A stretch of 63,517 nucleotides of DNA, filler included, from Folioceros fuciformis (lineage: Eukaryota): the NCBI GenBank assembly GCA_049999805.1. It is 21 parts of 21 records of this genome, joined end to end, with 100 filler letters (N's around TTAATTAATTAA, not from the genome) between each part and the next. Parts side by side here need not be neighbours in the genome. Positions count along the whole stretch, not along the records: positions 1 to 4,614 come from JBNGIO010000347.1; 20 more parts are not named here. The stretch is one strand, 5' to 3'. Below the pieces are notes generated by a model. That model saw only the letters and a program-made list of their open reading frames with translations. It ran no database searches and was not told where the DNA came from. Both the position numbers and the translations under genes were made by a program. Each line of letters starts with the position of its first letter. Position 1 is the stretch's first letter. Positions 1-59,600 of this stretch are shown here, one piece after another.

Positions 1-1669
1 CCCGAGCCGACGCGGCAGTGCTGTCTGGGCATAAAGTACCTGGCACGTGGGCTGGCCGGGTGCACCATGCGGCGTCCACAGGGGCCGTATGCCCGCCTGG
101 CGTCCTACATGGCCCGACTCATGCTCTGCGTGCTGTCCCCATACGCTGAACCTGGCCAGATCCGCACGGACCCGGGCCTGCCTGGCCGCCCAATCATCAC
201 CCACAGCCCCATCCCGAACGCCCCTCCTTCCCATACCGTTAGGGAAGCTGACCTAATCGTAACCGTTCGGCAAACTTTTCATGCAGCCCAGCCCCTTTTC
301 GCGGTACCCGATTTTTTTTCCCTTTTTATGGATTTCGAATTTCTATGTAAATATTTTAATGTACGTGCATTGTATACCGGGCAAACAGGCACAGGGTGAG
401 TGGGCTACGGGGTGAAAAAGTTATCCGTGGGGATCGAAGAATGTAGATGTCTTCAACGGGCGTCCATGACTTGCGTGCATGTGCATCGATGGGCTTCACA
501 ATCCATCTTGTCCCGTGCACGTCAAGGGCAGGATCATGGGGTCGGACACGCTCTCCTCTGCACGGTGTTGTGGGTGGAAGCTCGATTAAGGCACTCCTGT
601 TGCACCCGACGCAGCAAGACTTGTGAGAGCAGAGTAGAGAACACCTGATGCCCAAATACTGTAGCGTTCCACAACGCAGCACGACATGCGGAAGCTACCC
701 AGCAGGGATGGCCGGGAAAGTCTCCCCCACTTATCCAGGCGGCATGGCAGTGTAGAACGATCTGACCTCCACGCTATCCACAAGTCTACAGAAGAGAGAA
801 CAACAGTTTGTGGCCAACACTTGGCCATCACGTGGGAAAGTAAGTGGTGGATTTTTCGGACCTGTTGAAACCCACGTGGTGAAGGTGGAGCCATCTGTTG
901 GAATGACTTAGGAGGTCTCTAGTTGTGGGTCAGCGGGAAGGCGAAATAAGTACCTTTTCAGAACAGGGAGCAGATCCCTGGGCGTGAGACGAGAGGGAAA
1001 AGAAACGGATGCTGCACTTTTTGAGGAGGACGCGGGCGTTGCTTTGGGTCCTGCCTTGGCTTGGCTGCCTAGACTTCAGAATGAGGCACCTTGTGAACTG
1101 TGTTGAACTGTCCTCGTCTCTGCTGGTCAGGATGCAAGTTGATGCAGGGATGGTAGGGATCCTGGACTTGACTTGTATGGAGACACCGTGAGCACCCCCA
1201 GCACATCGCAGGGAGGGCTACCCTTGATCCACTCTCTCATGGGCTGAATTGGGGTGCCATCATTGGGTAGAGTCCAGGAGCCCCTGCTGGTTTGCAACTC
1301 TGCTTCCACTCCCACAGGACCAGGAGTTGCAACACTTGCACCCTCGTGTTGCTCCAAGCTCAATCCGACAACGCAGCCCCGATTCCACCGGATCTGAGCC
1401 GAATTTCAGGTCTGTACCCCGAGTCCTGGTCTCCGTGATCCAGCCAGAACACAACAGAAGCAAAGCCTAGACATGGCAGATGAGACGCTCGGAGTTCTAA
1501 CCGCGCTGCTCCATTCTGGTTCTTTCTGTGATGATGAGATGTGCCAGGATCACCGTCAGCCATCCATGCCCATGTCTCAGTTCGCACAGGAACGAAGTCA
1601 AGCAAGAACATCTGCTAGAAGAAAGAGAGCACCTTTCTCTGGCCTTCACACTTGAGTACTGGCTACTTC

Positions 1670-4063
1670 TTACGGTCGACCCTTACAGCTGCAAGAACCA
1701 GCTGCGAATCGATGTACTCGGTACCCATCCCTTACAACAATATTTCTCTGTTCAAGCCTTGACATTATCTCCGTGGAACTGTGGCAGTCACTGCACATGC
1801 GTAGGTTCTTCGTCACCACCAGAGGTGTCCCACTCGGAGTGTTCAAGAGACCGAACGCCAGAGCTAGCTTCTCAGCATGCCCACAAAGCACATCCTCTTT
1901 TTCCTTCTCACACACTCGCTTCAACACCAAATTTGTGTGTGGCACGTGGCCCCCTTCCAGCTTCAGACGTGCATTCATGCTCTCCAACTTGACTGCAATA
2001 TCATCTCTGTTTTCTCCCACCACAAAAGAGTGTACCGCCTTATTCACCTCAACCGTCGCCACTGCAGGCTTTTTGTTAGCTCCAGCTACCCTCCTCTGTG
2101 TTTCAACCCTGTCTACGTCGGTCCACCTACCTGCATCGGCATAGGCATTGGCCATGAGGACATAGGCTGGAGCCGCCTTCGGATCCAGCCTAACAATGCT
2201 TTCAAAACACGACATCGCCCTTTCAAGGTCCCCGTGACTTTTGGAGGCTGTCAACAAAGATGTCAAGCCCACAACATCACTTTGGACCTCACAAGATAAT
2301 AGCAGCTTCTCTGCGTCGTCTAAATGGCCAGCACGCCCAAGAAGATCAATCATGCAGGTGTAATGCTCAATAGTAGGTTTGATGCCATGCTGTTCAGCCA
2401 TGGAATTGAAGTGCTTGAAACCCTCGTCGACCAGCCCCTCATGACTGCATGCTGCTAGAAGGCAAGTGAAAGTAGCATCATTGGGCTGAATACCGGCAGC
2501 CAGCATATCCTGAAAACAAGCTAGTGCCTTGCGACCTTCACCACAATCGCCATACCCAGATAACATGGCGGTCCACGTCACCACGTTCTTCGTTTTCATG
2601 CCGTCAAAAACCTGGCTTGCAGCTTCCAGTTCACCACATTTTGCATACATGTCCACCAGGCAGGTGCTCACCACAACGTTATCCAGCAGTCCTCTTTCGA
2701 CGATTTGTGAGTGCAGCTGTCTGCCCCTCTGTAAGGCACCAGTGCTTGCACAGGCCTTCACAAGGCAAGCAAAAGTCACATGGTTCGCCAAAACCAGGCC
2801 CGACTCTTCCATCTGTGCATACAACAGCAGAGCCTCTTGGCCGAGTCCTTGCTGCGCATACCCAGCTATAAGGGAGGTCCATGTCACCACATCCTTTGTG
2901 GTCATGCTGGCAAAGGCCTCCCGCGCTTCTTCCAGTTCCCCACATTTTGCGTACCCAGCAATCAGGGCATTCCAAGTCACTACATCCTTTGTGGCCATGC
3001 CATCAAAAACCTGACGAGCATCTGCCATTTCGCCACATTTTGCATACATGTCCAACAGGCAATTGCCAACAAACAAGTTAGTGGGAATGCCACTATACAA
3101 CACATCACTGTGCACTTTTCTGCCGGATTCCAAATCGGCAGCAAATGCACAAGCTTGTAGGGCAGCCACAAAGACGTGGCCATTCGCCTTCACTCCTGAC
3201 CTACGCATGTCATGATACAGTTGTATGGCCTCATTATGTTTCCCATGATTAACATATGCAAAGATAATGGAACCCCACGTTTTAACATCCGGTTTGCCAA
3301 CCCTTCTGAACACATCCATGGCCTCCTTAAGGCTACCGCCACAAGCATACATGCGCAGGATATGGTTCCCCAAGTATGAATTCAACTCGTACCCAAGTTT
3401 GACAGTAAGATGATGAACTCGACGCCCCACAACCAAGTCCTTTCCAGCTGTACACAGTTTCAGCACAGTGCAAAACAGAGATTGAGAAACAGCAGAATCT
3501 GTCTGCACCAGACATTCCAGAGCTCCAACGGCCTCAGAGAGCTTCCCCTGCTGACACAACATGCTCACGGTCACAGCCGTAACGACGCCCATTCCCAAAC
3601 CTCCATGCCTCCCAGGTTCAGCCTCCTCCGGAAAGCCCGACTCGGAAGAAGAAGCACCATGACCCATCTGCATATCCAAAAAAACGAGCTGCTCATCAAC
3701 CCCAGCTGGCTTGAACATGCTATTCAACCACAGCACCTCGCCGGACCCCTTCCGCCGGAAATCAGGCCAATGCGAGCTCTTCTTATCTCGCCTATTATCC
3801 GACCACATTGTAGGATCCCGAAGAAATTGTTGCCACAGGTTCTCCTGCGCCTGGCGCCACCCATCTCTGGAAAATCCATCCGCACTCACACTTGTTCTCG
3901 GAAGCGGAGTTGCTGGGCTCCTTCCACTGCCCCGCCTGGAGGCATGGTTGTTTGCTGTGGCTGGACTCCCTGAAACGAGGTGACCGGGAGCCTCTCGTAG
4001 AATCCCTGTGCCCACACCAATTCGCCGGGTCCATAACGGGTCCGGTTGCCCTACTGAAGCCAT
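1670..4063 (-). CDS. PLS-class PPR protein with N-terminal OSB-like PDF motif, 12 PPR motifs, E1, E2 and DYW:KP (GRP-terminal) deaminase-like domain; putative organellar U-to-C RNA editing factor
   Basis: Intronless ORF (842 aa from 4198; MASVGQ at 4063 taken as the likelier start). Motifs parse as L-S-P-L-S-SS-P-L-S-P2-L2-S2-E1-E2. KKPAVATVEV replaces the PG box, then HAEKLALAFGLL, KNLRMCSDCH and C-terminal CSCKGRP. Confidence 0.95.
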   Translation of the reverse strand: MASVGQPDPLWTRRIGVGTGILREAPGHLVSGSPATANNHASRRGSGRSPATPLPRTSVSADGFSRDGWRQAQENLWQQFLRDPTMWSDNRRDKKSSHWPDFRRKGSGEVLWLNSMFKPAGVDEQLVFLDMQMGHGASSSESGFPEEAEPGRHGGLGMGVVTAVTVSMLCQQGKLSEAVGALECLVQTDSAVSQSLFCTVLKLCTAGKDLVVGRRVHHLTVKLGYELNSYLGNHILRMYACGGSLKEAMDVFRRVGKPDVKTWGSIIFAYVNHGKHNEAIQLYHDMRRSGVKANGHVFVAALQACAFAADLESGRKVHSDVLYSGIPTNLFVGNCLLDMYAKCGEMADARQVFDGMATKDVVTWNALIAGYAKCGELEEAREAFASMTTKDVVTWTSLIAGYAQQGLGQEALLLYAQMEESGLVLANHVTFACLVKACASTGALQRGRQLHSQIVERGLLDNVVVSTCLVDMYAKCGELEAASQVFDGMKTKNVVTWTAMLSGYGDCGEGRKALACFQDMLAAGIQPNDATFTCLLAACSHEGLVDEGFKHFNSMAEQHGIKPTIEHYTCMIDLLGRAGHLDDAEKLLLSCEVQSDVVGLTSLLTASKSHGDLERAMSCFESIVRLDPKAAPAYVLMANAYADAGRWTDVDRVETQRRVAGANKKPAVATVEVNKAVHSFVVGENRDDIAVKLESMNARLKLEGGHVPHTNLVLKRVCEKEKEDVLCGHAEKLALAFGLLNTPSGTPLVVTKNLRMCSDCHSSTEIMSRLEQRNIVVRDGYRVHRFAAGSCSCKGRP

Positions 4064-4614
4064 CGTGCAGGGACCGCGGTCGGCTTGCAAGCCAAATTCA
4101 AGCTTTGAGCAGGCATGCTCTTCAGCATATGAGGTAGGGGATATCTGCCTGAGCAGATTGATTGACAACCTAAACCCAGGTAGATACGTGTCATACATAT
4201 AGGATGAATGTGGAGGAGAATCAACATGAAGGAAGAGACATTTTCATGTGTCAAAAGATCAGACCCAACCTACGAGTTGCTCAACACCAGGAGGGCCAGT
4301 TTACAGGGTTTCAAGGAAGCATGTTCCATTGCAACGGGTGGGCTTGAAACTTGTTGGAGAGCAACAGGTTTAGTGCAAACCTGTTGTATGGCTCCGCGCG
4401 CGTAAATTAGCCGTTCGTTGGACTGTAACACGTGGTCAAAGTATCTTCTTCTTGCCGCAAAGGGCCCAACTGCCATCGGTCTCCATTGGAAACCGATGGC
4501 CCGTGTTTCGTGTTGTCGAGCGATGGCCCGCATCCCCACGGAACGACGGCTGTTCCGCAAGGGCTCGACGGCCCCCAGCCTCAGCTCTGGTAGAGCCCCA
4601 TGGACAATCGACCA

Positions 4615-4714
4615 NNNNNNNNNNNNNNNNNNNNNNNNNNNNNNNNNNNNNNNNNNNNTTAATTAATTAANNNNNNNNNNNNNNNNNNNNNNNNNNNNNN
4701 NNNNNNNNNNNNNN
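4615..4714. other. Artificial contig spacer (first of 20)
   Basis: 100 bp of Ns with a central TTAATTAATTAA (stops in all six frames), repeated identically through the window. Confidence 0.98.
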
Positions 4715-5290
4715 GAGAATTCTAAGACCTTCTTATGGTGGGATCTCTATCATTTGGAAGCTGGGATTTTGGGTACTTTGGCTTCCTGGTATGTCCAAGG
4801 ATCAGGGCCTGTCACTATAAGTGGAAGTGGAAGTGGTACCACTAGCATTCAAGCTCTATGCAATGCCATTGTATCGTATAATTGGAATGTTGCCATATAT
4901 CATGGAACCAGTTCAAGCGGTTCCAATGGTTCAATCGGTTCAACTGGTTCAAGCAATTCCAACAGTTCAAGCGGCGATGGAAGCATCCCAGCACTACCAC
5001 CTACACTACCAACACCAACAACACCAACACCAGCACCAACAAGCGTGGATGAATCGGCACCAACACCCGCACCGACCACAATAGATGAACCCACACCCGC
5101 ACCAGTTGAGGAACCGAGCACCCCGTACGATAGCCCCGTGCCAAGCGATGCCTCTCCTTCTGCACCTGAGCCTTATCAATGTGATACTCCTTCGTCCGAT
5201 TACTACTACTATTCAAGTCCGATCTCTTCACCTTCGAGTGGTTGTAGCGAGGAAACGATTGTGAATGGAAATAAGGGAGTGGTTGGTTAG
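4715..5290 (+). CDS. 3' part of a GDSL/SGNH-like esterase with Ser/Gly then Pro/Thr-rich C-terminal tail (5' truncated by contig edge)
   Basis: Frame is open from the contig edge: NSKTFLWWDLYHL resembles SGNH block V (FWDxxH). It is followed by SSSGSNGS and PTPAP repeats. Confidence 0.5.
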   Translation, partial: ENSKTFLWWDLYHLEAGILGTLASWYVQGSGPVTISGSGSGTTSIQALCNAIVSYNWNVAIYHGTSSSGSNGSIGSTGSSNSNSSSGDGSIPALPPTLPTPTTPTPAPTSVDESAPTPAPTTIDEPTPAPVEEPSTPYDSPVPSDASPSAPEPYQCDTPSSDYYYYSSPISSPSSGCSEETIVNGNKGVVG

Positions 5291-6279: not shown

Positions 6280-9200
6280 TCAGCGACCGCTCATTGAGTT
6301 TGCTGATACTGAAAGTGGCAACCTTACAACATGACCTTTATCACTGGTCCATGTCAAAGATCCAAATGCAAAGGCTTGGTTGGGATATATAGTTTTCAAG
6401 GTTACAGTGAAGGTCAAAGTCCTCCTTTTCTTGATCACAAATGAAGAAGGTCTTACAGTCACTTCAACTCCACTTGGTGCTACCACAAATGCAGTGTAAG
6501 TTTCTTTGCTGCAAACAATGCTCCAACATTTGATGTTAGTGAAAGTGTATGCATAGGGACGCATGCATTTTTATAAACCTTAATGATATGTGCTTTGCTT
6601 ACCTATGACTGCCTACATTTGTCACCACTCTTTTCACTCTCCGAGTTCCTATAAGGTTTGCTATTGTAATGGACGGAGTATTAAGGTCTGATGTGCGGGC
6701 ACCATCTCTAGTTTCACACACTGCACTTGTTGCATCTTGTACTGAATTTGCATCCGCCCCCGGCAGCGTGCATAAGAAATTTATGTAGTCTTGGAAATCT
6801 ACAATGTCATTACAACTTGTGCAGTTTAATGCCTGATATGATCATACAAAGAACATGAAATATGTGACACTAGGAGAAACCTGAAACAAAGACTAGTCCA
6901 GGATCAAAGGCTGCACTTGCATTCACAGCACCGCTTCCCAAATCAAATGGTGATGCAACACCAATCAAAGAGGAGGTGTTCCCCTCCGGTTTTTGAGCTT
7001 TGATGGGACTAAACTTGTTATCTACAGATATGGCCGTAGTCTGTATTGCAGAGTGGATTGCAGAAACCGTCCACTTTGGATATTTTTGTCTTAAGAGAGC
7101 TGCTAATCCAGCAATATGAGGTGCGGCCATACTTGTACCAGATAGTAGAGCAAACTTTTGGCCTTCAAGTGTTCATAACCAAGTTAGTAAAACAAGTGTG
7201 AAAGAATCATGCTTGCAAAAAATAATTTGTTACAAAGTAAATAGCAATACCTGTAAAACCTCCCACATCAGTGCCAATTGGACTCCAAGCTGCCCATATT
7301 TCAAATCCAGGTGCGAGGATATCAGGCTTTAGCACATCACCAACAGTTGAGGTGATTGTGTTTGCATACACAGGCCCTCTTGAAGAGAATGCTACAACTT
7401 GAGGAGCCTCTAAAGAATATGAAGCATTGCGTGAATCCTTCAGTTTCCCTTTCGCTCCAAAAACAATAGCACCCCCTTTTGAATTATCCTTTATTGTGGC
7501 TTTGTTGTAATAGTCAAGGATAATCTGAAATGTAAGCACAAAGTTGATACAATGTTTCATGTGATTTGTATCTCAACACTTACAAATTAAACCCAACACA
7601 ATAGTACCTTTGAAAGATTCGAGTCAATAATGAATGTTGTTGGAAACGATAATGGTGTTGGATCAAACGATATAGCATGTTCCCGTGGAACATCAGAGGA
7701 AGGTTGTGCTAAGATAATAAGCCCTATTGCGCTTGTATTTTTGGCAGTTGCAATAGCATTATTCACTTGAGTTGATACAGCTCCAGAAAAGTAGTCCACA
7801 AAATTACATATCAAAATCTTTCCTTCTACCTTGGAACGATTAAAAGGTGAAGAATCTTGGCAGTATGAAAAATATTCATAGTCATATATGCTAGTGTTAT
7901 CAGTAAAAGCGTCTTCAGCATATATCAAAGAATGAAACTCATCTCCCGTCGTTCCTCCTATATGATGTGCATGTCTTGGTAAAAAACACGTAATATAAAA
8001 CTTACCTCAAAATATTTATATCTACAAATAAAGAATAATTGAATTTTGTTTTTGCCTACCTGAAAGTCCGCATCCATTAACTTCTTGCCCATTTCCAAGA
8101 ACTACAGGATTCAAATAAACTCTATCTGTAGTCCCTGCTGCAACCGAGATCAACCAAGGGCCATAGGAATTCATGGTCATAGGGAAAGGACCATTGTTTC
8201 CAGCTGCATGGACGACTGTAACTCCTGCTTTAACAGCAAATAGCAAAGCAATGTCGAATGAATTGAGGCATGCAATTCCATAAGCTCCTGTGGTGGCTCC
8301 TAATGATATGCTTAATACGTCCACTCCATCTTGAATAGCCTAATGCAAAATAGATATCTAGTAACCATTCTTTCTTTTGAAGATATGAAAATGTCCAATC
8401 TAAACATGACAACTCTCAATACCTGGTCAATGCCTGCAAGAACATCTGAAAGAAAGCCACCATCTCTGTAGATGACTTTGTAGATCGCCAATCTGGAACA
8501 AAAATCAATCACATCATCTCAACCCAACATGTAGAGTTATCTTATCACAAAACCCAAAACACTGAAGTACTTTGTAACCTTGCACGTGGAGCAACTCCAC
8601 TTGCCCAACCATATTGAAATCCACCAACATGGACTGGGACTCCATTATTTCCAGCTGCTGTTCCCGCAGTATGTCTGTTCAAAATACATGTTAGTGATTA
8701 ATCTTGGGTGTGTGTGTGCAGATACAATCCATGTTTGAACATTAAGCTACATGGATGCTATGAAATTTGGAATAGACTGTGTGTGACTCACGTTCCATGA
8801 CCATCTCCATCTAATGGTGAGTTGAAGTCGTAGCTGGCATTAAATATATTGGCAGCTATAATACCTTTGGAAAAATGCCTTGCAGCCACTATCTTTCCAT
8901 TGCATACCCCTTTGGGAAAGTCACCTAGGTTCACTTCACATTGTGAAGAGTTCATCGAGGGCCATTGTTTTAAAGGCTTATACGGATGTGAGGGCTTATT
9001 AGCAAAACTATGATGATAAGGAAAGATTCCTGTATCTAAAAACCCAATAACTACATTCTCTCCTGCACGCTGGATTCCTCCAACATTTTGCCATCCTGTA
9101 GCAAGTCCTAGAAATTCTGGAGTATGAGTTGTGGATTTCTGAAAGATCACTTCTTGTTCAGTTGAAACAACTTGAGGATGTTGTGCTATAGTTTCAATCT

Positions 9201-38357: not shown

Positions 38358-40006
38358 CTATGTTGCGGCCTTAAAATATTGTTGATAATTAAATAGGCCG
38401 AGACCTTCCATATGCTTGAAGTACTTGTCTTTCGGCAAAGGTTTGGTTAGGATGTCCGCTGTGTTATCATCTGTGGGCACATAGAGAATTTTAACCACCC
38501 CCCTCTCAGCGGCATCTCTAACGTAATGATGGTGGACTTCGATGTGTTTAGTGCAGGCGTAGAAATGAGGATTCGCTACCAAGGCTATCGTAGACTGATT
38601 ATCACACCAGAGGTGAGTAGGGCCCGTTTGTGATTCCCCAATATCTCGTAAGAAAGCACGCTCCCACTCAACCTCTTTCGTGGCATTTGTTAAAGACTTG
38701 TATTCGGCCTCAGTGCTAGAGAGGGCAATACTCGTCTGTTTTTTACAGCTCTAGTTGACAGCAGCCTGAGAAAGCAGAAAAACATATGTGGAAAGGCTTT
38801 TTCGGGAGTCACTATTAGAGGCCAAATCCGCGTCTGTGAACCCCTTCAGAGATAAGTTCCCTGTTCCACTCCTTCTATAACAGAGTCCAATGTGATGAGT
38901 GCCTTTCAAGTAACGAAATATTCGTTTGACAGCAGTCCAGTGAGCACGCCCAGGGTTTTCTAGAAATTGAGAAACAATACTAACTGAGTGCTGTATATCA
39001 GGACGGGTCCAGTTGCTGACAAAAATCAAGCTGCCGATAGCGTGTCGGTAAGGAACATCTTGCAAATCCTTTTGATCAGCTTCTATAAGAGCACACTCAT
39101 ATCTAGTGAGCTTGGCACCTACTACACCTGGAGTGGTAGCTGGGTGTGCAGAGCTCGTGTGGAACTTGTGAAGAATTTCAGCTATATATTTATGCTGGTG
39201 AATAATAAGAAGGCCTTCAGAGCGAATGCGAAGTACTTGAATTCCTAGACAGAAAAGTAGATCCCCACTATCTGTTATTTCGAAGGTTTGCCTTAACATA
39301 TTTTTGACTGTGACCAGCATAGAGGTGTCATTAGCAACAAGGATTACATCGTCGACATACAGTGCAAGAATCACGTAAGTATTTCCCTCCTGCAGGATAT
39401 AGACATTAGAGTCCGCTGCACACTGCCGAAACCCTAGGGCCTTTAGAGCTTTATCACAACGTTTGTACCAGCGTTCTGCACTTTGCTTCAAACCATATAT
39501 GCATTTAATAAGCTGACATACATATTCTGGATGTGCAGGGTCCTCATAACCCTCCGGCTGTTCCATGTACAACTCCTCTTCTAAAATGCCATGCAAGAAA
39601 GCTGTGCAGACGTCCATCTGCTGCAGCTGTAGGTCATACTCTGCAGCTAAGGCGAAAATGAGATGGAGTGACTGGGCAAGTACTACAGGAGAAAATGTCT
39701 CCTGATAATCAAGTCCTACCACTTGTGTGAAGTCTCTAGCACAGAGTCGTGCTTTGTATCTTGCAATTTTCCCTTCAACATTGAGTTTATGTTTAAAACC
39801 CATTTGCACGTGATTGGTTTACGGTTTGGAGGTCTGGGATCTAATTTCCATGTGCCATTTTTGATCAAGCTGTTGTATTCATCATCCACAGCGATTTTCC
39901 ATTTATCTTTATTAGGTCCTGTAAAAGCTTCTGTAAGGCTGGTAGGCTCAAGAGGAACATGTGGAGGAACTACAACAGCTCCTGCTGTATGGCGGAAGTC
40001 TATAGA
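38358..40006 (-). mobile_element. Ty1/copia RT-RNase H fragment (family of 25734-26882)
   Basis: RYKARL, QMDVCTAFLHG, LYVDD, SNWTRPDI, ADILTK. Confidence 0.95.
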
Positions 40007-44020: not shown

Positions 44021-47000
44021 TGTTAGAGTAGGTTAAGTACATTAAGTTACTAACAGGATTAGGGCTAGACAGTTGGAAACCCTAACCGTCACTAGGTCTT
44101 GGTCATGTGACTAAGAATAATGTACATCCTTTTCTTCTTTCTTACGCCAATACACACGTTTGATCCTTCTCATGGTATTAGAGCTCTAGTGATCTGCGAC
44201 ATGCGCCATTTATCTGGCGCATGATTATGGTATCCTTGGCATCGCCGAATGGGCCGGCGATGCCAATGCGGATCCTTTGCCATCATTCCGGTTTTCTGGA
44301 ATTTTGCACAAATTATTTGACGCCTCTTGGCTTTGCTACTTTCTATCTAATTTAGCGCTCTATTTCCTAAAAATTATGGACGGTTGCTTTGGTGCAGCAG
44401 TCCTATGTGTGTAGATGCCTTAAGGCACCTTGCCTACAAGAATGCACATACACATGTTTGTCAACATCTTAAGATGCCCGGCCTTAGAAAACAGCAATGA
44501 CTAGCAAGAAGGGCACAATGTCAGCACACGCTCACCGAGTGGTTGGCAGCCAGGGTCAGAGATTATACGCTTATCTTGGGAGACACGCGGTGGCAACAAA
44601 TTTGGGTGCGTATGTATAACATCTTGGAACTAATGGCTACCTCTGTCTATCCTAGCCTCGACGGATATGACTAGAGCCACCAAGATGTTGCCCCCAAGAA
44701 TTGCATTTATCTCTATCCTCTATCTTTCTACAATTATATGTATGTGTACCCCTTATATGTATGTTGCACAACAACATATGTGACGTATTTTCAGCGAATC
44801 AGTAAAACTGTCAGCAACTTTAATTGATCAATATGCAAAGCACTTTCCCTATTACATATGCTTAGAATTAAACACATCAGAATTAGAAATAGTGACGATT
44901 ACCTTACAACTATGTAGGGAACCAAGTTAGCAATCCTCCCTGAAAGCTAACTATGTCTCAATAATGCTATAAATTTGTAGCAGTTCCTACCATGACCCAG
45001 CAGCAAATGAACAATCCGTCTTTGCATTTTAATTCAACCATACCTAAAGAAGACAAGTTTGATGGTACTAATTTCCATGTCAGGAAATTTCGCATGATTG
45101 AATTGCTCAAGTCAAGAAAGCTCTGGGCTCATGTCCATAGCACAGGAAGTCCACCAGTCCCTACGCCAAAGCCACCTACAACTCAACCTGATGAGGTGGC
45201 AAAATGGGAGGAAAACGATCAGCTGGCCAGAACGTTGCTCCATTTCAACGTTAAAAGTACACACATCAATGTATTCCAAGGCACACAAGAACTTGCATCG
45301 AATTGGTGGAAACAAGTGTTAATGGTCTATGACTCTAGAGATTTGATGCTGCAAACCTATGTGCTTCACCAATTCACTAGCCTTAAGATGTCTGATAGAG
45401 AGCCAGTTGACAAACATGTGCGTGCTAGAATTTAGAAACTAGAGGGATAAGATGCTTTCTGCTAGTTTTGACTTGGAAGAGGAGTTCATGGCCGTCTTCT
45501 TTCTAACCATGCTCCCTGAATCATGGTCAAGTGTGGTCCACACCCTCCAGGATGTTCCTACACTCATAGTGAACAGAGTGATTGCTGCAATGCTTACCGA
45601 GGAGTCCAAGAGAAAGATTGCAAGCACATCTATTTCTAGCAGCCGCATAGACTAGGGGTTGTACATGAATCGACCTATCAGAGGTTGAGGGCAAGGCCGT
45701 CCTTTGCCAGAGGACGCGGAGGATGTGGAGGTCGAGGAGCATTTCAACCCTAACAGTTTGGTAGCACAAGGCCAAAGCCTCCATGAGGGTTATGTGGCAT
45801 GCAAAATCATACATAGGAAGTGTGTCCCAAGTGACTGTCAGGAGAGAGTGGCCCATCTTCAGGCCACTTAGCTGTGACAATGAGCAAATACAGCAAAGCA
45901 TTCCTTACCCAAGTTGTGAAGTCTCCAACAACGTTTTCTGATGACATTAAATTACAGCACTCTTGTGATGTGGACTCATGCTATGCTAACCAGCCAGCAC
46001 ATGCCTGGTACATCAACAGTGGTGCTTCCCAGCACATGAATCCTCACTTGGCCTACTTCACAGAAATGAGGAGCTGTACACCAGCGGAGTACGTGTGCTT
46101 AGGAGACGATACCAAGCACCACATTGAAGGTCAGGGGACCACTAGACTCGACCTTATGCTGTCTCATTATGTGGAGATCCCTAATGTGTTGTATGTTACG
46201 GGACTTACTAAAAATTTGGTCTCGGTGAGGAAAATCGATGAGTCTGGATGCTTTATATGCTTTGGTGGAGGAAAATGTGTTGTAGAGTCAAGCGTAGGGA
46301 CTCTCCTTGCAACTGGACATCTGCAAAATGACGATCTATATCACCTCGATCTGCAGACAGCAAAGGCCAATGTTGTTCAGTCATCATCCAGGTTTGCAAA
46401 GCCATCTCAAACATATTTATGGCACCTCTGCCTTGGCCATACAAACTATCACAAGGTAGTACATATGTACAAACACAACATGGTGGACAGGCTCACCTTA
46501 GATAAGCTTGATGATGTTGGAGTTTGCAAGTCTTGTGTCCTGGGCAAGCCTGAAAGGACCCCCTTTCCTACAAACGCCTCTACTAGGGCCACAGAGGTAC
46601 TTGGATTAGTCCACAGCAATGTATGTGGGACTTTGCCTAAATCTCTTGGCAGGAAGGAATATTTTCTTACATTTATTGATGACTACACTCGATTTTGCAT
46701 AGTCTACTTCCTCCGCCACAAGTCTAATACATGTTCATACTTCCTGGAGTATAAAGCTTGGGCCGAATTACAAACTAGTGCCAACCTAAAGAAGCTTCGC
46801 ACCATCAATGGTGACGAGTTCCTCTCCGGAGAGTTCAACGCCTACTACACACAGCATAGCATTGTCAGACAGCTCACAAATGCATACACACCCCAGCAAA
46901 ATGGGGTAGCTGAACACAAGAATGATGACCCGGAGACGTCAGCTTCGAGCATGCTTCAATATACAGCCCTGCCTAGCAGCTATTGGGTAGAGGCCGTGGC

Positions 47001-49782
47001 CTATGCCACTTACATTCAGAACCGCATTGCTTACAGTTGTGTGCCGGAGAAAACTCCATACGATCTCTAGACAGGAAGAAGATCGGGTGTAGCCCACATG
47101 CGAGTTTTTGGCTCTACAGTGTATGCACAAGTCCAAAAAGACATTCTTAAGAAGTTCGAGCCTAAGTTGAAGGAATGCATTTTTGTGGGCTTTGCCGAAG
47201 GCATTAAAGGTTACAAGTTGCTGAATTGACAAACAAGGAAGATGACACACTCAAGAGATGTGGTGTTTGTCGAAGGAGTTGCGCCAAACCTCATAGTGGG
47301 AGAAGTAGCCAGCTCAGAGTGGGATAACGAAGGAGACAACAACTCAGAAGACCAAGAGGAGATCATTGTTGGTGACATGCATGTACCGCTGCCTACACCA
47401 CAACCACAAGGTCAGCAGCAGCAAGTTTCAACCTGTTTGCCTCCACAAGTACCAATAGTCTCCCAGCAAACACCAGCAGCTAACCTAAGGCCAACACTCC
47501 GTACACTTGTAAAGATGTCAACCGAGGAGCCTAAGAGTAAAAAACAAACTCCTTAGCAAAGGAAAACACACAAGTACGCTTACCCGAAGCCAAGGTCTTC
47601 AACAAGGACACGCAAGCCTCCCGACTATTGGGTACCTGAAGACTTTAGGCATCCAAAGTCGCATTTGACTTATTGCCTAGTAGCATACTTGAAGGCTTTT
47701 TGAGCCATAGTCCTATGAAGAAGCATTATCATGCCCTGATGCGAAATTATGGCAAAAGGCCATCGATTTCTGAGCTAGGCTCATTGTATGCGAACAAGAC
47801 CTAGTCCCTAACAAGCCTACTTGCACATCGCAAGGCTGTTGGGTCCAAATGGGTCTTCAAGTCAAAGATGCGGGTAGACGGCAATATCGATAGATACAAA
47901 GCAAGGGTTGTTGTAAAAGGATACTCACAAATTCATGGAGTTGACTACAACAATACATTGAATTTCAGTCCAGTCGTCAAGCTAACAACACTTAGATTGT
48001 TTGTGGCACTTGTAGCAATGGGAGACTATGAACTGGAATAGCTAGACGTGACCACTACTTTCCTATATGGGAACCTCCAAGAGAAAATCTACATGTCAGT
48101 GCCTTCAGGATTTGACATTCCACGTGGCTTGCAAAATCCAGTATGCAAGTTGCATAAATCCTTCTATGGGCTCAAACAGAGCCCAAGGGCCTGGTACTCA
48201 CGCATAGACAGCTATCTCAAGTTGATTGGTTATGAGAACATCAATGCTGATAGCAATGTTTACATAAAGAGAGAAGGGAGAGAGTTTTTGGCACTTGCTA
48301 TATATGTCGACGACATAATTATAATGAGTAACTCCTTCCAGATGATAGAAGAACTGAGACAATAGCTAAGCAGAGCATGCAAGACGACTACTGGAGGAGC
48401 TCTGGCGTTTTGCCTTGGCATGTACTTGCTACGAAATCGCAAGAATGGAACCATATTCAAGAGCATCAGACAAAGTATGCATAAGAAATCCTTGCAAAAT
48501 TCGAGATGAGTAACTGCAAGCCCATCTCAACACCTATCGAGCAAAACACCAAGTATTATGCACAGGTGGGTGACATACTTACAGAGGACGTAGAGAAGGT
48601 ATAACAATATCTTTCTAGAAATGGAAGTGTTATGCATTTGGTGATAGGGTCTCGTCCAGACTTGGCATTTAGCTCTGGCCTGACCTCAAGGTTTGTTTCA
48701 AACCCAAACATGCAGCATAATGCTCTGATGACAAGGCTCTACAGGTATATAGCAACCACCTACGACTAGGACATCATGTATAGCTGAAAATCCAAGAATG
48801 CATTGCAGTTAGTGGCGTATAGTGACGCCGATTGGGCCACCGACCCTGATAGCAAAAAGAGCATTTCTAGCTATGTTACCTTGCTTGCCGAAGGTGCTGT
48901 GGGCTGGAGCAATAGGAGACATACCACAATCACACTCTCTTTGACAGAGGCCGAGTACAAGAGCCTCATAGAGGCCCGCAAAGAGGTAACATGGACAGTG
49001 GGAGCTCTGTGGGAGCTGGGAGTAGTACAAAGTCTACCGGTCAGCTTGTTTTGCGACAATCAAAGTGTGATCTCAGCATGAACCCCCGGTTCCACGCGAG
49101 GACGAAGCACATTGAAATTCAACACCATTATATCTGGGAAGTGATTGCAACAGGAGTGGTGGAGATTATCTACTACCCGACATAAGAGATGACGGCCGAT
49201 ATCCTCACGAAGAGTCTTGGGCGCATTAAGCACTACTAGCACGCCACCGGCCTTGGACTTTGCATTGCAGGAGAACCCATCGAGTGGAGCAGGGTGCCCA
49301 ATCAGCAACTCTAACAGAGCTCGGGCGTAGCCGTGCAATGACTGGAGCACAAGTGAATGAACAAAAGTGATGACGCCGAATAGTTACCATGATGATCACC
49401 ACGATGATCACTGGAATCATGCCTGCCCTTGGGGAAGGTGAGCCCCATAGCCCTCGGGGGAATTTGAGGGTTAAGACTGGATGGTCTTAGCAGTCCGTTA
49501 GTATCAGGGTGGTGGGAAGCTTTTTCCACGTCTTGTCTAGAGGGCTGGACACGAGATCGATTTTTCTCCCGATCCTGTACACATGCTATGTAAATACGTA
49601 GGTAGGGGTCCCCTTGGTATTGTAGGAGGACGACAATATTAATCTGAATATTTTCTTCGTGAAAAAAAAAGCTAAAAAGTCGGCCTACCCAAGTTTCTGG
49701 ATTTTAGGTCTAGGTCGTCCAAGTTTCTTTAGCAAGTTTAAGTTTCTTCTATGTCATGTCGATATAGATAAGCAAACAATAA

Positions 49783-57069: not shown

Positions 57070-59600
57070 CCTAATGATTATTGGGCAGAAGCAGTGATGA
57101 CAGCAGTGTATGTACTGAATCGAACTCCTACGGCAGGAATTCATGATGCTACACCAATTGAGAGACTGTATGGCTATAAGGCGGATATTAGGCACTTGAA
57201 AGTGTTTGGGTGCATTGCATATGTGCATGTACCTGGTGAGAAGCGTAGGAAGCTGGATCCTAAAGTAGTGAAGAGTGTTTTTTTGGGGTATGCACGAAAT
57301 AGGAAGGTATATAAGTGTTATGTGTCATCCAAACATGAGATCCTGATAAGCAGGGATGTGGTATTTGATGAGTTATCCTCCTGGAATAGCAACTCAGTTG
57401 CACTACCCTCTGACGAACCCACAGGGGAGAGTACTGTTAAGAATACTCCAGCAAAGAGTGAGGATGTGACCAATGGTGGATCACCAACGGTGAATCCATG
57501 GTCTAGAAGACTACGGAATGGTAAACCGAAGACCACTGACCCGGATATGTCAGTGAGGGGGAGAGTAGAAAGCAGCAAAACTAGAAATAAGGGATATGAA
57601 TCCTCAAGTAGTGAGAGCATTGACAGTGAGTTTGGCATTCCGTCTGTGGAAACGCCAGGTGCTAAGGAGCAACAATATCCAAGGCAGGTTCAAAATGAAC
57701 CAAGACCAAGGAGATCTAAGAGGTTAAGGAAACCCATTGACAGGTACACCTATACAAGCTACAATGCGCAACATTATGCGTATATGACAAGGGTCATAGC
57801 TTGTAAGGAGCCAACCAAGTTTGCTGAGGCAGTGACAGATGATAAGTGGTGTCGAGCCATGGATGAAGAATACTCAGCATTAGTTAAGAACGGAACGTGG
57901 GATTTGGTTCAATTGCCTGATGACAAGGTTCCTATTGGTTCTAAGTGGGTGTACAAGCTGAAGTTCAAGTCAGATGGAACGCTGGAGCGTTACAAGGCCA
58001 GGTTGGTTGCAAAGGTATATGCACAACAGTATGGTCTTGATTATGAGGAAACCTTTAGTCCAGTAGCCAAGATGACAATTGTAAGGATAGTCATAGCATT
58101 AGCAGCAGTTGAAGGATGGAAGTTATGGCAAATGGATGTCAAGAATGCCTTCTTGAATGGTGAGTTGCAGGAGGAAGTGTACGTGGAACAACTTGAAGGC
58201 TATGTTCATCCTAAGTTTCCAACATACGTCTGCAAACTGAAGAAGGCATTGTATGGACACAAACAGGCACCTAGAGCATGGAATGCTCGTATCACAAGCT
58301 ATTTGAAGGAGCGAGGGTTTGTGATTGGAGAGGCAGATCACAGTCTGTTTGTAAAACAGACCAAGGTAGGACAAGTGTGTCTTGTCGTTTATTTTGACGA
58401 CCTGATCATCACAGGAGATGATGCAGATGGTATTGCAGATGTCAAGGCAAATCTGCAAAAAGAGTTCAAGGTGAAGGATCTTGGTGAACTCAAATACTTC
58501 TTAGGAATTGAGGTTGTGTCTACACCTCAAGGAATCTGGCTATTCTAAAAACAATATGCTAAGGATATGTTGCAGAAGTATGGCATGGCAGATTGCAAAG
58601 CGATGGATACAGCATTGGAGCATAACGTCAAGCTGCAAATGGATGTAGGAGCTGAGCTGGAAAATGTGATTATGTATCGACAGATGGTCGGAAGTTTGAT
58701 CTACTTGACTATGACACGTCTTGACTTAAGTTATGCAGTGGGACTGATTAGTCAATTCATGCAGAACCCAAGGAAACCGCACTTGGATGCAGTTAGAAGA
58801 ATCATGAGATATGTAAAAGGAACTACTGAGTTTGGATTTCTCTATGAGCATAGGAAGCATCTTGAAATGATAGGATATACAGATGCTGATTGGGCTGGTT
58901 GTGCGTATGACAGAAGATCAAAAAGTGGATATGCATTCAGTCTGGGAAAGTAGTATGATCAGCTGGCAAAGCAAGAAACAACCGACAGTTGCTTTGTCAA
59001 GCACAGAAGCAGAGTATCGAGGAGCTGCAATGGCAACCTGTGAAGCAGCATGGTTGCAGAAGTTGCTACATGATCTTGGAAATATAGTGAACAGCAAGGT
59101 TACAATCTACTGTGACAACATGAGTAGCATGAGGTTGGTTTCTAATCCTGTGTTTCATGCTCGTTCGAAGCACATAGAAGTACATTATCACTTCGTCAGG
59201 GAAGCGGTATTATCTGAGAAGATAGATCTTCGGCACGTGAAGACCGACGACCAGGTAGCAGATATCTTTACTAAGTCTCTAGGTAGAGATAAGTTCTTAC
59301 ACTTTCGTGAACTACTTGGAGTGTTACAAATAGTCTGAGCTTGAGGAGGAGTGTTAGAAATCAAGCTCTAACTGAATTGTTATTAAGAGCATACAACACT
59401 TAGGATAGTGTAGATTATCCCATATTGAACTCGTAGTTATCTATCACATAAGTGTTATCAGGATATATCACGATATACTAGGATATTGCACCCTCGAGAC
59501 TAAGGCGTACCTTATCGAGGGTTGCCCCGCCTAAAGGCTACATATGTAGCATCTTATGCACCATAAGTAAGGAACTGTGGAGTCCTTATAAGCCTGTGGT
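57070..59600 (+). mobile_element. Ty1/copia integrase-RT-RNase H, PPT and 3' LTR start (59352)
   Basis: VFGCIAY, SRDVVFDE, QMDVKNAFLNG, YTDADWAG, ADIFTK; GAGGAGGAG then TGTTAG. Confidence 0.95.

Follow-up and report, generated by a model that had tools for sequence, protein, structure and literature searches.

An OSB-type PDF domain precedes the repeats of a DYW:KP-type PPR editing factor in Folioceros fuciformis

In a stretch of 63,517 nucleotides of Folioceros fuciformis DNA (assembly GCA_049999805.1; 21 parts of 21 records joined with filler, hereafter the window) we found a gene that almost certainly encodes a PLS-class pentatricopeptide repeat (PPR) editing factor of the DYW:KP type, with one PDF domain of about 55 residues that follows a presumed transit peptide and precedes the PPR array. 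PPR-DYW proteins are site-specific RNA editors of plant organelles and are under development as programmable C-to-U and U-to-C tools. The PDF motif is described in the reviews PMC6963530 and PMC4166229 as a 50-residue element named for its Pro-Asp-Phe signature, which stands in one to three copies C-terminal to the OB-fold of OSB proteins. An earlier reading of this DNA from the sequence alone (the sequence-only reading) had proposed such a motif at positions 3686-3844, upstream of the PPR array in the same intronless open reading frame (ORF). This arrangement was borne out by the 842-residue translation, in which Pfam recognised PPR, the E motif and the DYW domain.

The gene is an ORF of 842 codons plus a stop on the minus strand (1670-4198), without internal stops or introns. 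Its translation contains tandem PPR repeats (PPR_2 E 3.9e-65, PPR E 1.4e-63), followed by E motifs and a DYW_deaminase match at residues 750-840 (E 6.3e-33). The HxE...CxxCH signature that belongs to a PLS-class PPR-E-DYW editing factor is present, with HAE at residues 774-776 and CSDCH within 797-806. The first ~200 residues gave no Pfam family at E<=1. The 63.5-kb window holds one PPR gene and one PDF-like stretch, both in this ORF, and no second copy was seen in a six-frame scan with a profile hidden Markov model (HMM). The features of the gene are as follows.

1670-4198, minus strand: intronless ORF of 842 amino acids (aa) with presequence, PDF domain, linker, PLS-class PPR array, E motifs and DYW:KP domain (ORF list, translation, Pfam).
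4061-4063, minus strand: Met46 (MASVGQ...), the probable real start from contig cover, with Met1 at 4196-4198 as the alternative.
3854-4060, minus strand: presequence, residues 47-115, presumed organelle transit peptide (composition; mostly single-copy in the aligned contigs).
3686-3853, minus strand: PDF domain, residues 116-171, with P145-D146-F147 central (phmmer, BLASTP, HMM, six-frame scan, AlphaFold2).
3593-3661, minus strand: predicted disordered Gly/Ser/Glu-rich linker, residues 180-202, from the PDF domain to the first PPR helix (AlphaFold2 confidence score pLDDT <50).
2237-3574, minus strand: PLS-class PPR array, approximately residues 209-654 (Pfam PPR, PPR_1, PPR_2 and PPR_3, each with 8-9 matched stretches; AlphaFold2 helix).
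2075-2236, minus strand: E1/E2 motifs, residues 655-708 (Pfam E_motif PF20431 at residues 655-717, E 4.8e-14).
1673-2074, minus strand: DYW:KP domain of the GRP type, residues 709-842, 134 aa (KKPAVA box, HAEKLA, KNLRMCSDCH, terminal GRP; Pfam DYW_deaminase E 6.3e-33).

The PDF peptide NLWQQFLRDPTMWSDNRRDKKSSHWPDFRRKGSGEVLWLNSMFKPAGVDEQL comprises residues 120-171 and corresponds to positions 3686-3841. The motif proposed by the sequence-only reading is real, and only its interval was drawn one codon longer than the peptide; within HMM bounds it covers residues 116-171 (3686-3853). We searched 1.84 billion cluster representatives exhaustively with phmmer, using 86 residues of the protein (P0002) as the query, and obtained 334 proteins at E<=1e-3, of which 71 reached E<=1e-10 and 10 reached E<=1e-30. 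The majority of matches contained 2-13 matched stretches each, a tandem arrangement as described for PDF motifs. Among them were 'protein OSB1, mitochondrial-like [Populus nigra]' (P0042, E 1.1e-14) and 'protein OSB3, chloroplastic/mitochondrial-like [Chenopodium quinoa]' (P0007, E 8.5e-38). Pairwise BLASTP comparisons gave 28/59 identical residues with the former (E 3e-14) and 28/66 with the latter (E 6e-15), that is 42-47% identity to the motifs of proteins named OSB1 and OSB3. The recovery of both by an unbiased search agrees with the assignment of the motif to the OSB type. In a further match from Linum (P0039), Pfam placed an SSB domain at residues 78-175 with the PDF matches C-terminal to it, which is the OSB architecture.

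The sequence-only reading had suggested a check with an HMM of PDF motifs, which we trained on 268 motif copies taken from non-PPR matches. It scored 64.5 bits against the 842-aa protein across residues 116-171, with 56 of the 61 model positions aligned, whereas none of 1000 shuffled versions of residues 1-200 exceeded 9.8 bits. The training copies had themselves been retrieved with the query, while the OSB-named phmmer matches and the pairwise scores are independent of this circularity. Scanning all six frames of the window gave a single match (59.5 bits), with the next best at 0.4 bits. In a 46-sequence alignment the window copy kept all eight invariant columns (D134, R136, K139, P145, D146, F147, L156 and W157). 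The segment accordingly combines the Pro-Asp-Phe signature of a ~50-residue motif with significant similarity to the PDF motifs of OSB proteins. Judged from these comparisons, residues 116-171 are a homologue of the OSB PDF motif, and chance resemblance is excluded. A candidate for a second, frame-shifted PDF remnant further upstream (3951-4031) scored 0.4 bits in another frame and was rejected.

Pfam has no model matching the PDF motif, and the OSB-like proteins P0014 and P0017 gave 0 families. The SSB-like domain of OSB proteins was often below the Pfam threshold. Word-index protein searches with the 86-aa piece or with residues 100-330 returned no relatives, and exhaustive phmmer and profile searches were needed. 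According to the review PMC4166229 the PDF motif dates back to green algae. In agreement with this, our profile search recovered PDF proteins with green-algal or marine microbial-eukaryote source labels (P0010, Sanguina aurantia; P0020, eukprot PRCOL; P0190, an MMETSP transcript). Several non-PPR proteins (P0003 from Kingdonia uniflora, 1160 aa; P0004, P0005, P0012 and P0015) carried 8-13 tandem PDF stretches, compared with one to three in OSB proteins. Two further gene models with PDF motifs, P0057 (Coptis chinensis, 1526 aa) and P0037 (Striga hermonthica, 1063 aa), contain a kinesin motor domain or bear the name 'Interactor of constitutive active ROPs 2', and may reflect the merging of separate genes in annotation and no true fusion.

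The PDF-coding segment was also found outside this one locus. We aligned public contigs to positions 1300-4600 at >=85% likeness and, since summed depth is not copy number, used counts of contigs. The bins of the motif region (3631-3852) were covered about equally to the N-terminal PPR repeats, and cover dropped steeply upstream of 3853. At position 3703, within the motif, two runs under the organism label of the window contained 44 and 51 distinct contigs with variant letters, and 88 and 118 distinct contigs were counted under two other organism labels. A contig of the locus itself (X1 record 8, 3738-4472, zero differences) spans the motif and the sequence upstream of it. Going by these alignments, the PDF-coding segment is common to dozens of paralogous genes. 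Positions 3964-4074, in the neighbourhood of Met46 (MASVGQPDPLW...), form a smaller conserved patch that was deeply covered by contigs of paralogues and of other organism labels. The cover here was far deeper than in the flanking bins, which points to a common N-terminal presequence starting near Met46 and makes this methionine the probable translation start. In residues 46-115, where G, S, R, A, P and T are abundant, 9 residues are basic and 4 acidic, and residues 47-115 are presumed to be an organelle transit peptide.

At the other end of the protein, we compared the ~140 C-terminal residues with five canonical DYW:PG domains in an alignment. The differences were the following.

PG box: KKPAVA in the window protein, (K)xPG in canonical DYW domains.
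xHP: a four-residue gap at xHP(x) in the window protein, present in canonical DYW domains.
Active site: HAE (HAEKLA) in the window protein, HSE (HSE(K/R)LA) in canonical DYW domains.
Residues before CxxCH: LRMC in the window protein, LR(I/V)C in canonical DYW domains.
Last three residues: GRP in the window protein, DYW in canonical DYW domains.

PMC9478123 characterises the hornwort 'GRP' subgroup of DYW:KP domains by KP in place of the PG box, HAE, a missing xHP, M instead of V before CxxCH and a terminal GRP. The aligned window domain has every one of these features. The assignment of the editor to the DYW:KP type by the sequence-only reading was thus confirmed through the KPA box, HAE, the missing xHP, LRM and the terminal GRP, and the domain is classified by its motifs as DYW:KP of the GRP subgroup, a group tied to U-to-C editing. 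With such features the gene most likely belongs to a nuclear genome of hornwort type. In designer KP domains the conserved active-site lysine is Lys88, as given in PMC11845758. K797 of the window protein, in TKNLRMCSDCH, is roughly the 89th of the 134 residues of the domain and may correspond to Lys88.

The combination of PDF and PPR was not restricted to the window gene. PPR proteins with an N-terminal PDF motif made up 12 of the best 150 of the 334 phmmer matches. A profile built on 13 PPR-linked motifs, for which only the 7981 candidates sharing most words were scored, matched at least 1258 proteins at E<=1e-5. Among the best 120 of these, 31 had PPR Pfam domains (29 from Diphasiastrum complanatum, most of them with two or three PDF copies, one from Adiantum and one unnamed), and four of the PPR-bearing proteins also had a DYW domain. 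Altogether PDF and PPR occurred together in 44 of 260 fetched proteins, with 1-3 N-terminal PDF copies. All PDF copies were upstream of the first PPR match in 43 of the 44; the exception, P0193, carries a third PDF copy (679-733), as though two gene models had been merged. Named sources were Ceratopteris richardii, Adiantum capillus-veneris, Pteridium aquilinum, Selaginella, Diphasiastrum complanatum and Sphagnum compactum, and in transcript-derived ORFs of Pteridium aquilinum PDF and PPR share one reading frame. No named PDF+PPR protein of seed-plant origin was among the best 150 of the 334 phmmer matches and the best 120 of the at least 1258 profile matches.

The C-termini of these proteins varied. 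All five DYW domains among the 44 proteins end in DYW and are of the PG/HSE type. PDF+PPR proteins of Sphagnum compactum and Diphasiastrum complanatum were found with canonical DYW domains (PG box, HSE, terminal DYW), and those of ferns and Selaginella included E-only or truncated PLS proteins. A specific association of the PDF domain with KP domains was therefore rejected, and the link to U-to-C-type editors drawn by the sequence-only reading did not hold, since the same fusion occurs with DYW:PG and with E-only PPR proteins. By domain content, the order of one to three PDF copies and then PPR is widespread in a moss, in lycophytes and in ferns, and it goes together with DYW:PG, DYW:KP and E-only C-termini alike. 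The recurrence of the fusion with different C-termini marks it as an old, family-wide architecture of seed-free land plants rather than a peculiarity of one gene.

Unannotated examples are Ceratopteris KAH7429238.1, Adiantum KAI5076972.1, Selaginella XP_024517303.1, Diphasiastrum KAJ7231026.1 and Sphagnum compactum CAM6033764.1, which carry source names such as 'hypothetical protein' or plain PPR protein. They share with the window protein the order of 1-3 PDF copies, a short linker and PLS-class PPR, but differ in that any DYW domain is of the PG/HSE/DYW type and that many stop after the E motifs or are truncated models. In a tree of the motifs the window copy clustered with fern PDF+PPR motifs (SH-aLRT 90). 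PPR-linked motifs formed clusters of their own, with 10 label changes compared with ~66 in shuffles, although the labels are imperfect: several rows labelled 'OSB' within PPR clusters are short fragments or proteins that their source names as PPR. The tree has 65 columns, too few to resolve origins, and 10 of its 258 inner branches were starred.

The PDF domain is predicted to fold independently as a small alpha/beta module. AlphaFold2, run on the 46-sequence motif alignment, gave a model with pLDDT 92.5 and a predicted TM-score (pTM) of 0.76, consisting of a helix (2-15), short strands (20-22, 35-37 and 43-44) and a second helix (55-62). In a model of residues 105-363 (259 residues, 18-sequence alignment) the PDF domain had pLDDT 82-93 and the PPR helices >90, with model residues 76-98 (protein residues 180-202) below 50 and the first confident PPR helix at model residue 104 (protein residue 208). 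The domain would therefore sit on a disordered tether of ~23 residues. The structure prediction that the sequence-only reading had suggested gave a confident fold, but no solved relative was found. Foldseek returned 0 matches of the model in the PDB at E<=0.001 (best E 6.8), and the best of 48,161 chains in VIA-align had Z 3.6, none reaching Z>=5. A search of the PDB by sequence gave chance-level XIAP BIR matches only (E 0.067), and the ESM Atlas gave no usable match. Because neither Foldseek nor VIA-align found a convincing relative, the fold cannot be assigned, from which novelty of the fold does not follow.

As possible functions of the module the sequence-only reading had named tethering to nucleoids, help with unwinding of the target and replacement of MORF/ORRM-type helpers, all of which are hypothetical. 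We propose that the PDF domain might assist the editor in cis by binding single-stranded nucleic acid as an accessory module. Since the N-terminal repeats of a PPR tract lie toward the 5' side of the bound RNA, a PDF domain tethered to the N-terminus would reach RNA just upstream of the footprint. There it would touch the RNA, add affinity that is not sequence-specific and hold the target single-stranded, while the C-terminal DYW:KP domain would act on a uridine 3' of the footprint. RNA is favoured as the substrate since the protein is otherwise an RNA-binding editor. It is probable that the PDF domain of the window protein binds some single-stranded nucleic acid, be it RNA or DNA. The mechanism as worded here, in which the RNA substrate is bound in cis, is possible but somewhat doubtful. 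The best explanation taken as a whole, which joins the architecture with an in-cis RNA helper, we put forward tentatively as falling just short of evenly balanced.

Several points weigh against this explanation. Our literature search found no binding, editing or localisation report for any PDF+PPR protein, and the start codon and the transit peptide of the window protein are both inferred. The PDF motif of OSB1 is sufficient for binding of single-stranded DNA (ssDNA) according to the review PMC6963530, and OSB1 and OSB2 prefer ssDNA over double-stranded DNA or RNA according to the review PMC4166229. This favours the main rival, in which the PDF domain, a close OSB homologue on a flexible tether as modelled, would keep the editor at the nucleoid, on ssDNA of the transcriptionally active organelle chromosome, and couple editing to transcription. 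However, the remaining protein binds and modifies RNA, dozens to hundreds of ssDNA-binding paralogues would compete with OSB, SSB and Whirly proteins, and the separate clustering of PPR-linked motifs in the tree suggests that specificity may have shifted; we consider such a tether somewhat unlikely. A role in assembly, by self-association of the domain, by recruitment of partners such as OSB proteins or other editing factors, or as a cap for folding or solubility, in place of nucleic-acid binding, would fit with tandem arrays of 1-13 PDF copies, as interaction modules often have, with the tetrameric state reported for AtOSB2 (PMC6963530) and with the lack of any nucleic-acid-binding fold recognised by Foldseek or VIA-align. 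The conserved aromatic and basic residues (W, F, R and K, invariant or nearly so) are, on the other hand, typical of single-strand binders, the sole experimental statement on the motif in the excerpt of PMC6963530 concerns ssDNA binding, and the predicted disordered linker of 23 residues speaks against a cap. An assembly role is therefore unlikely.

The remaining explanations concern the state of the domain in this gene. The window copy has G166 at column 54, where >=90% of the 46 aligned motifs have tryptophan, and S133 where most copies carry the second W of WWDNR. Its 64.5 bits rank among the lower scores of the 13 PPR-linked proteins in the comparison (copies 61-84 bits), so that the copy could be weakened. 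The fusion might then be ancestral and the PDF domain of this gene a drifting relic that contributes nothing. Yet all eight invariant positions are intact, the frame is open, the domain is modelled with pLDDT 92.5, and the segment recurs at >=85% nucleotide identity in dozens of paralogous contigs, which makes decay very unlikely. Finally, the locus was absent from every run recorded as RNA, and in-frame ATGs at residues 176 and 178 would allow translation to start downstream and leave the motif as a 5' leader. Contigs of run X3 were identical to 3961-4600, but the RNA nature of this run is a guess and its contigs are uninformative on transcription, ends and strand. Against a start at Met176 or Met178, both residues fall where the last helix of the predicted domain ends, paralogues conserve the coding-strand segment up to the first residues of the motif, and PDF stands in frame upstream of PPR in 44 proteins of at least six named genera, transcript-derived ORFs included. 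That the motif is not in the protein, or that it is a chance resemblance, which the phmmer search, the HMM shuffles and the six-frame scan exclude, is exceedingly unlikely.

The window protein shares with OSB proteins the PDF domain at 42-47% identity, including the invariant D..R..K...PDF...LW core, and both are probably targeted to organelles. In OSB proteins, however, 1-3 PDF motifs stand C-terminal to an SSB-like OB-fold (reviews PMC6963530 and PMC4166229; P0039 by Pfam), whereas the window protein has no Pfam SSB match at E<=1 and its PDF domain is N-terminal and followed by a PPR-E-DYW module. It thus carries a PDF domain yet is not an OSB protein. Its C-terminal half fits the hornwort 'GRP' PPR-DYW:KP proteins, which are candidate U-to-C editing factors (KP, HAE, xHP gap, LRM and GRP). 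The passages of PMC9478123 and PMC11845758 on these proteins describe a PLS array with C-terminal domains and do not mention an N-terminal PDF.

The putative helper role of the PDF domain follows the same idea as the MORF/RIP, ORRM (with RRM) and OZ helpers, in which an extra module aids PLS-PPR proteins in holding or positioning RNA, although fold and origin are unrelated. Fusions of RRM with PPR have been reported across plants, and MORF proteins are exclusive to seed plants (PMC13386178). The PDF domain might even be the built-in cis RNA helper of PLS editors in seed-free plants, a counterpart of the trans-acting MORF proteins; it would then have been lost from PPR genes in the seed-plant lineage, where MORFs arose. 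This speculation would explain the complementary spread, among the matches listed, of named PDF+PPR proteins in moss, lycophyte and fern, together with the hornwort-type gene of the window, and of MORF in seed plants only; we regard it as improbable. If true, an added PDF domain would be predicted to improve designer C-to-U and U-to-C PPR editors.

The sequence-only reading knew of no description of this architecture, and our search of full-text literature likewise found none, with the founding OSB and hornwort KP papers and their supplements outside the search, so that a prior mention is possible. A review that contains both 'PDF motif' and PPR mentions the latter only for RNA polymerase, and the main text of a 2026 survey of domain fusions in editing factors (PMC13386178) contains no OSB, PDF or 'single-stranded'. 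Surveys based on Pfam have probably missed the fusion, because the PDF motif has neither a Pfam model nor a solved structure. PDF+PPR is a known domain in a widespread architecture that is apparently undescribed.

Outside the PPR gene the window resembles plant nuclear DNA. Three ORFs are of the Ty1/copia type by Pfam, namely 38751-39809 (minus strand) with RVT_2, 45874-47070 (plus strand) with Pol_BBD, gag_pre-integrase and rve, and 57094-58548 (plus strand) with RVT_2 and SH3_retrovirus; they appear to be pieces of two or more elements. The ORFs 7587-7928 and 7207-7560 (both minus strand) resemble exons of a subtilase-like protease gene, one with a weak PA-domain match (E 7.3e-4, below the Pfam cut-off) and the other with a VLKPDILAPG-type stretch. 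Directly upstream of the PPR gene in the window, the ORF 4754-5290 (plus strand) would encode 178 aa rich in Ser, Pro and Thr; it has no Pfam family and may be non-coding low-complexity sequence. Several runs of the window, e.g. 4641-4700, contain N, 1760 in total.

The finding broadens the known occurrence of the PDF domain to proteins outside the OSB family. Conserved, predicted to fold alone and probably nucleic-acid-binding, the domain is a testable candidate for an in-cis helper of the editors of seed-free plants. It thereby bears on how the PPR-DYW editors of these plants work without helper proteins.

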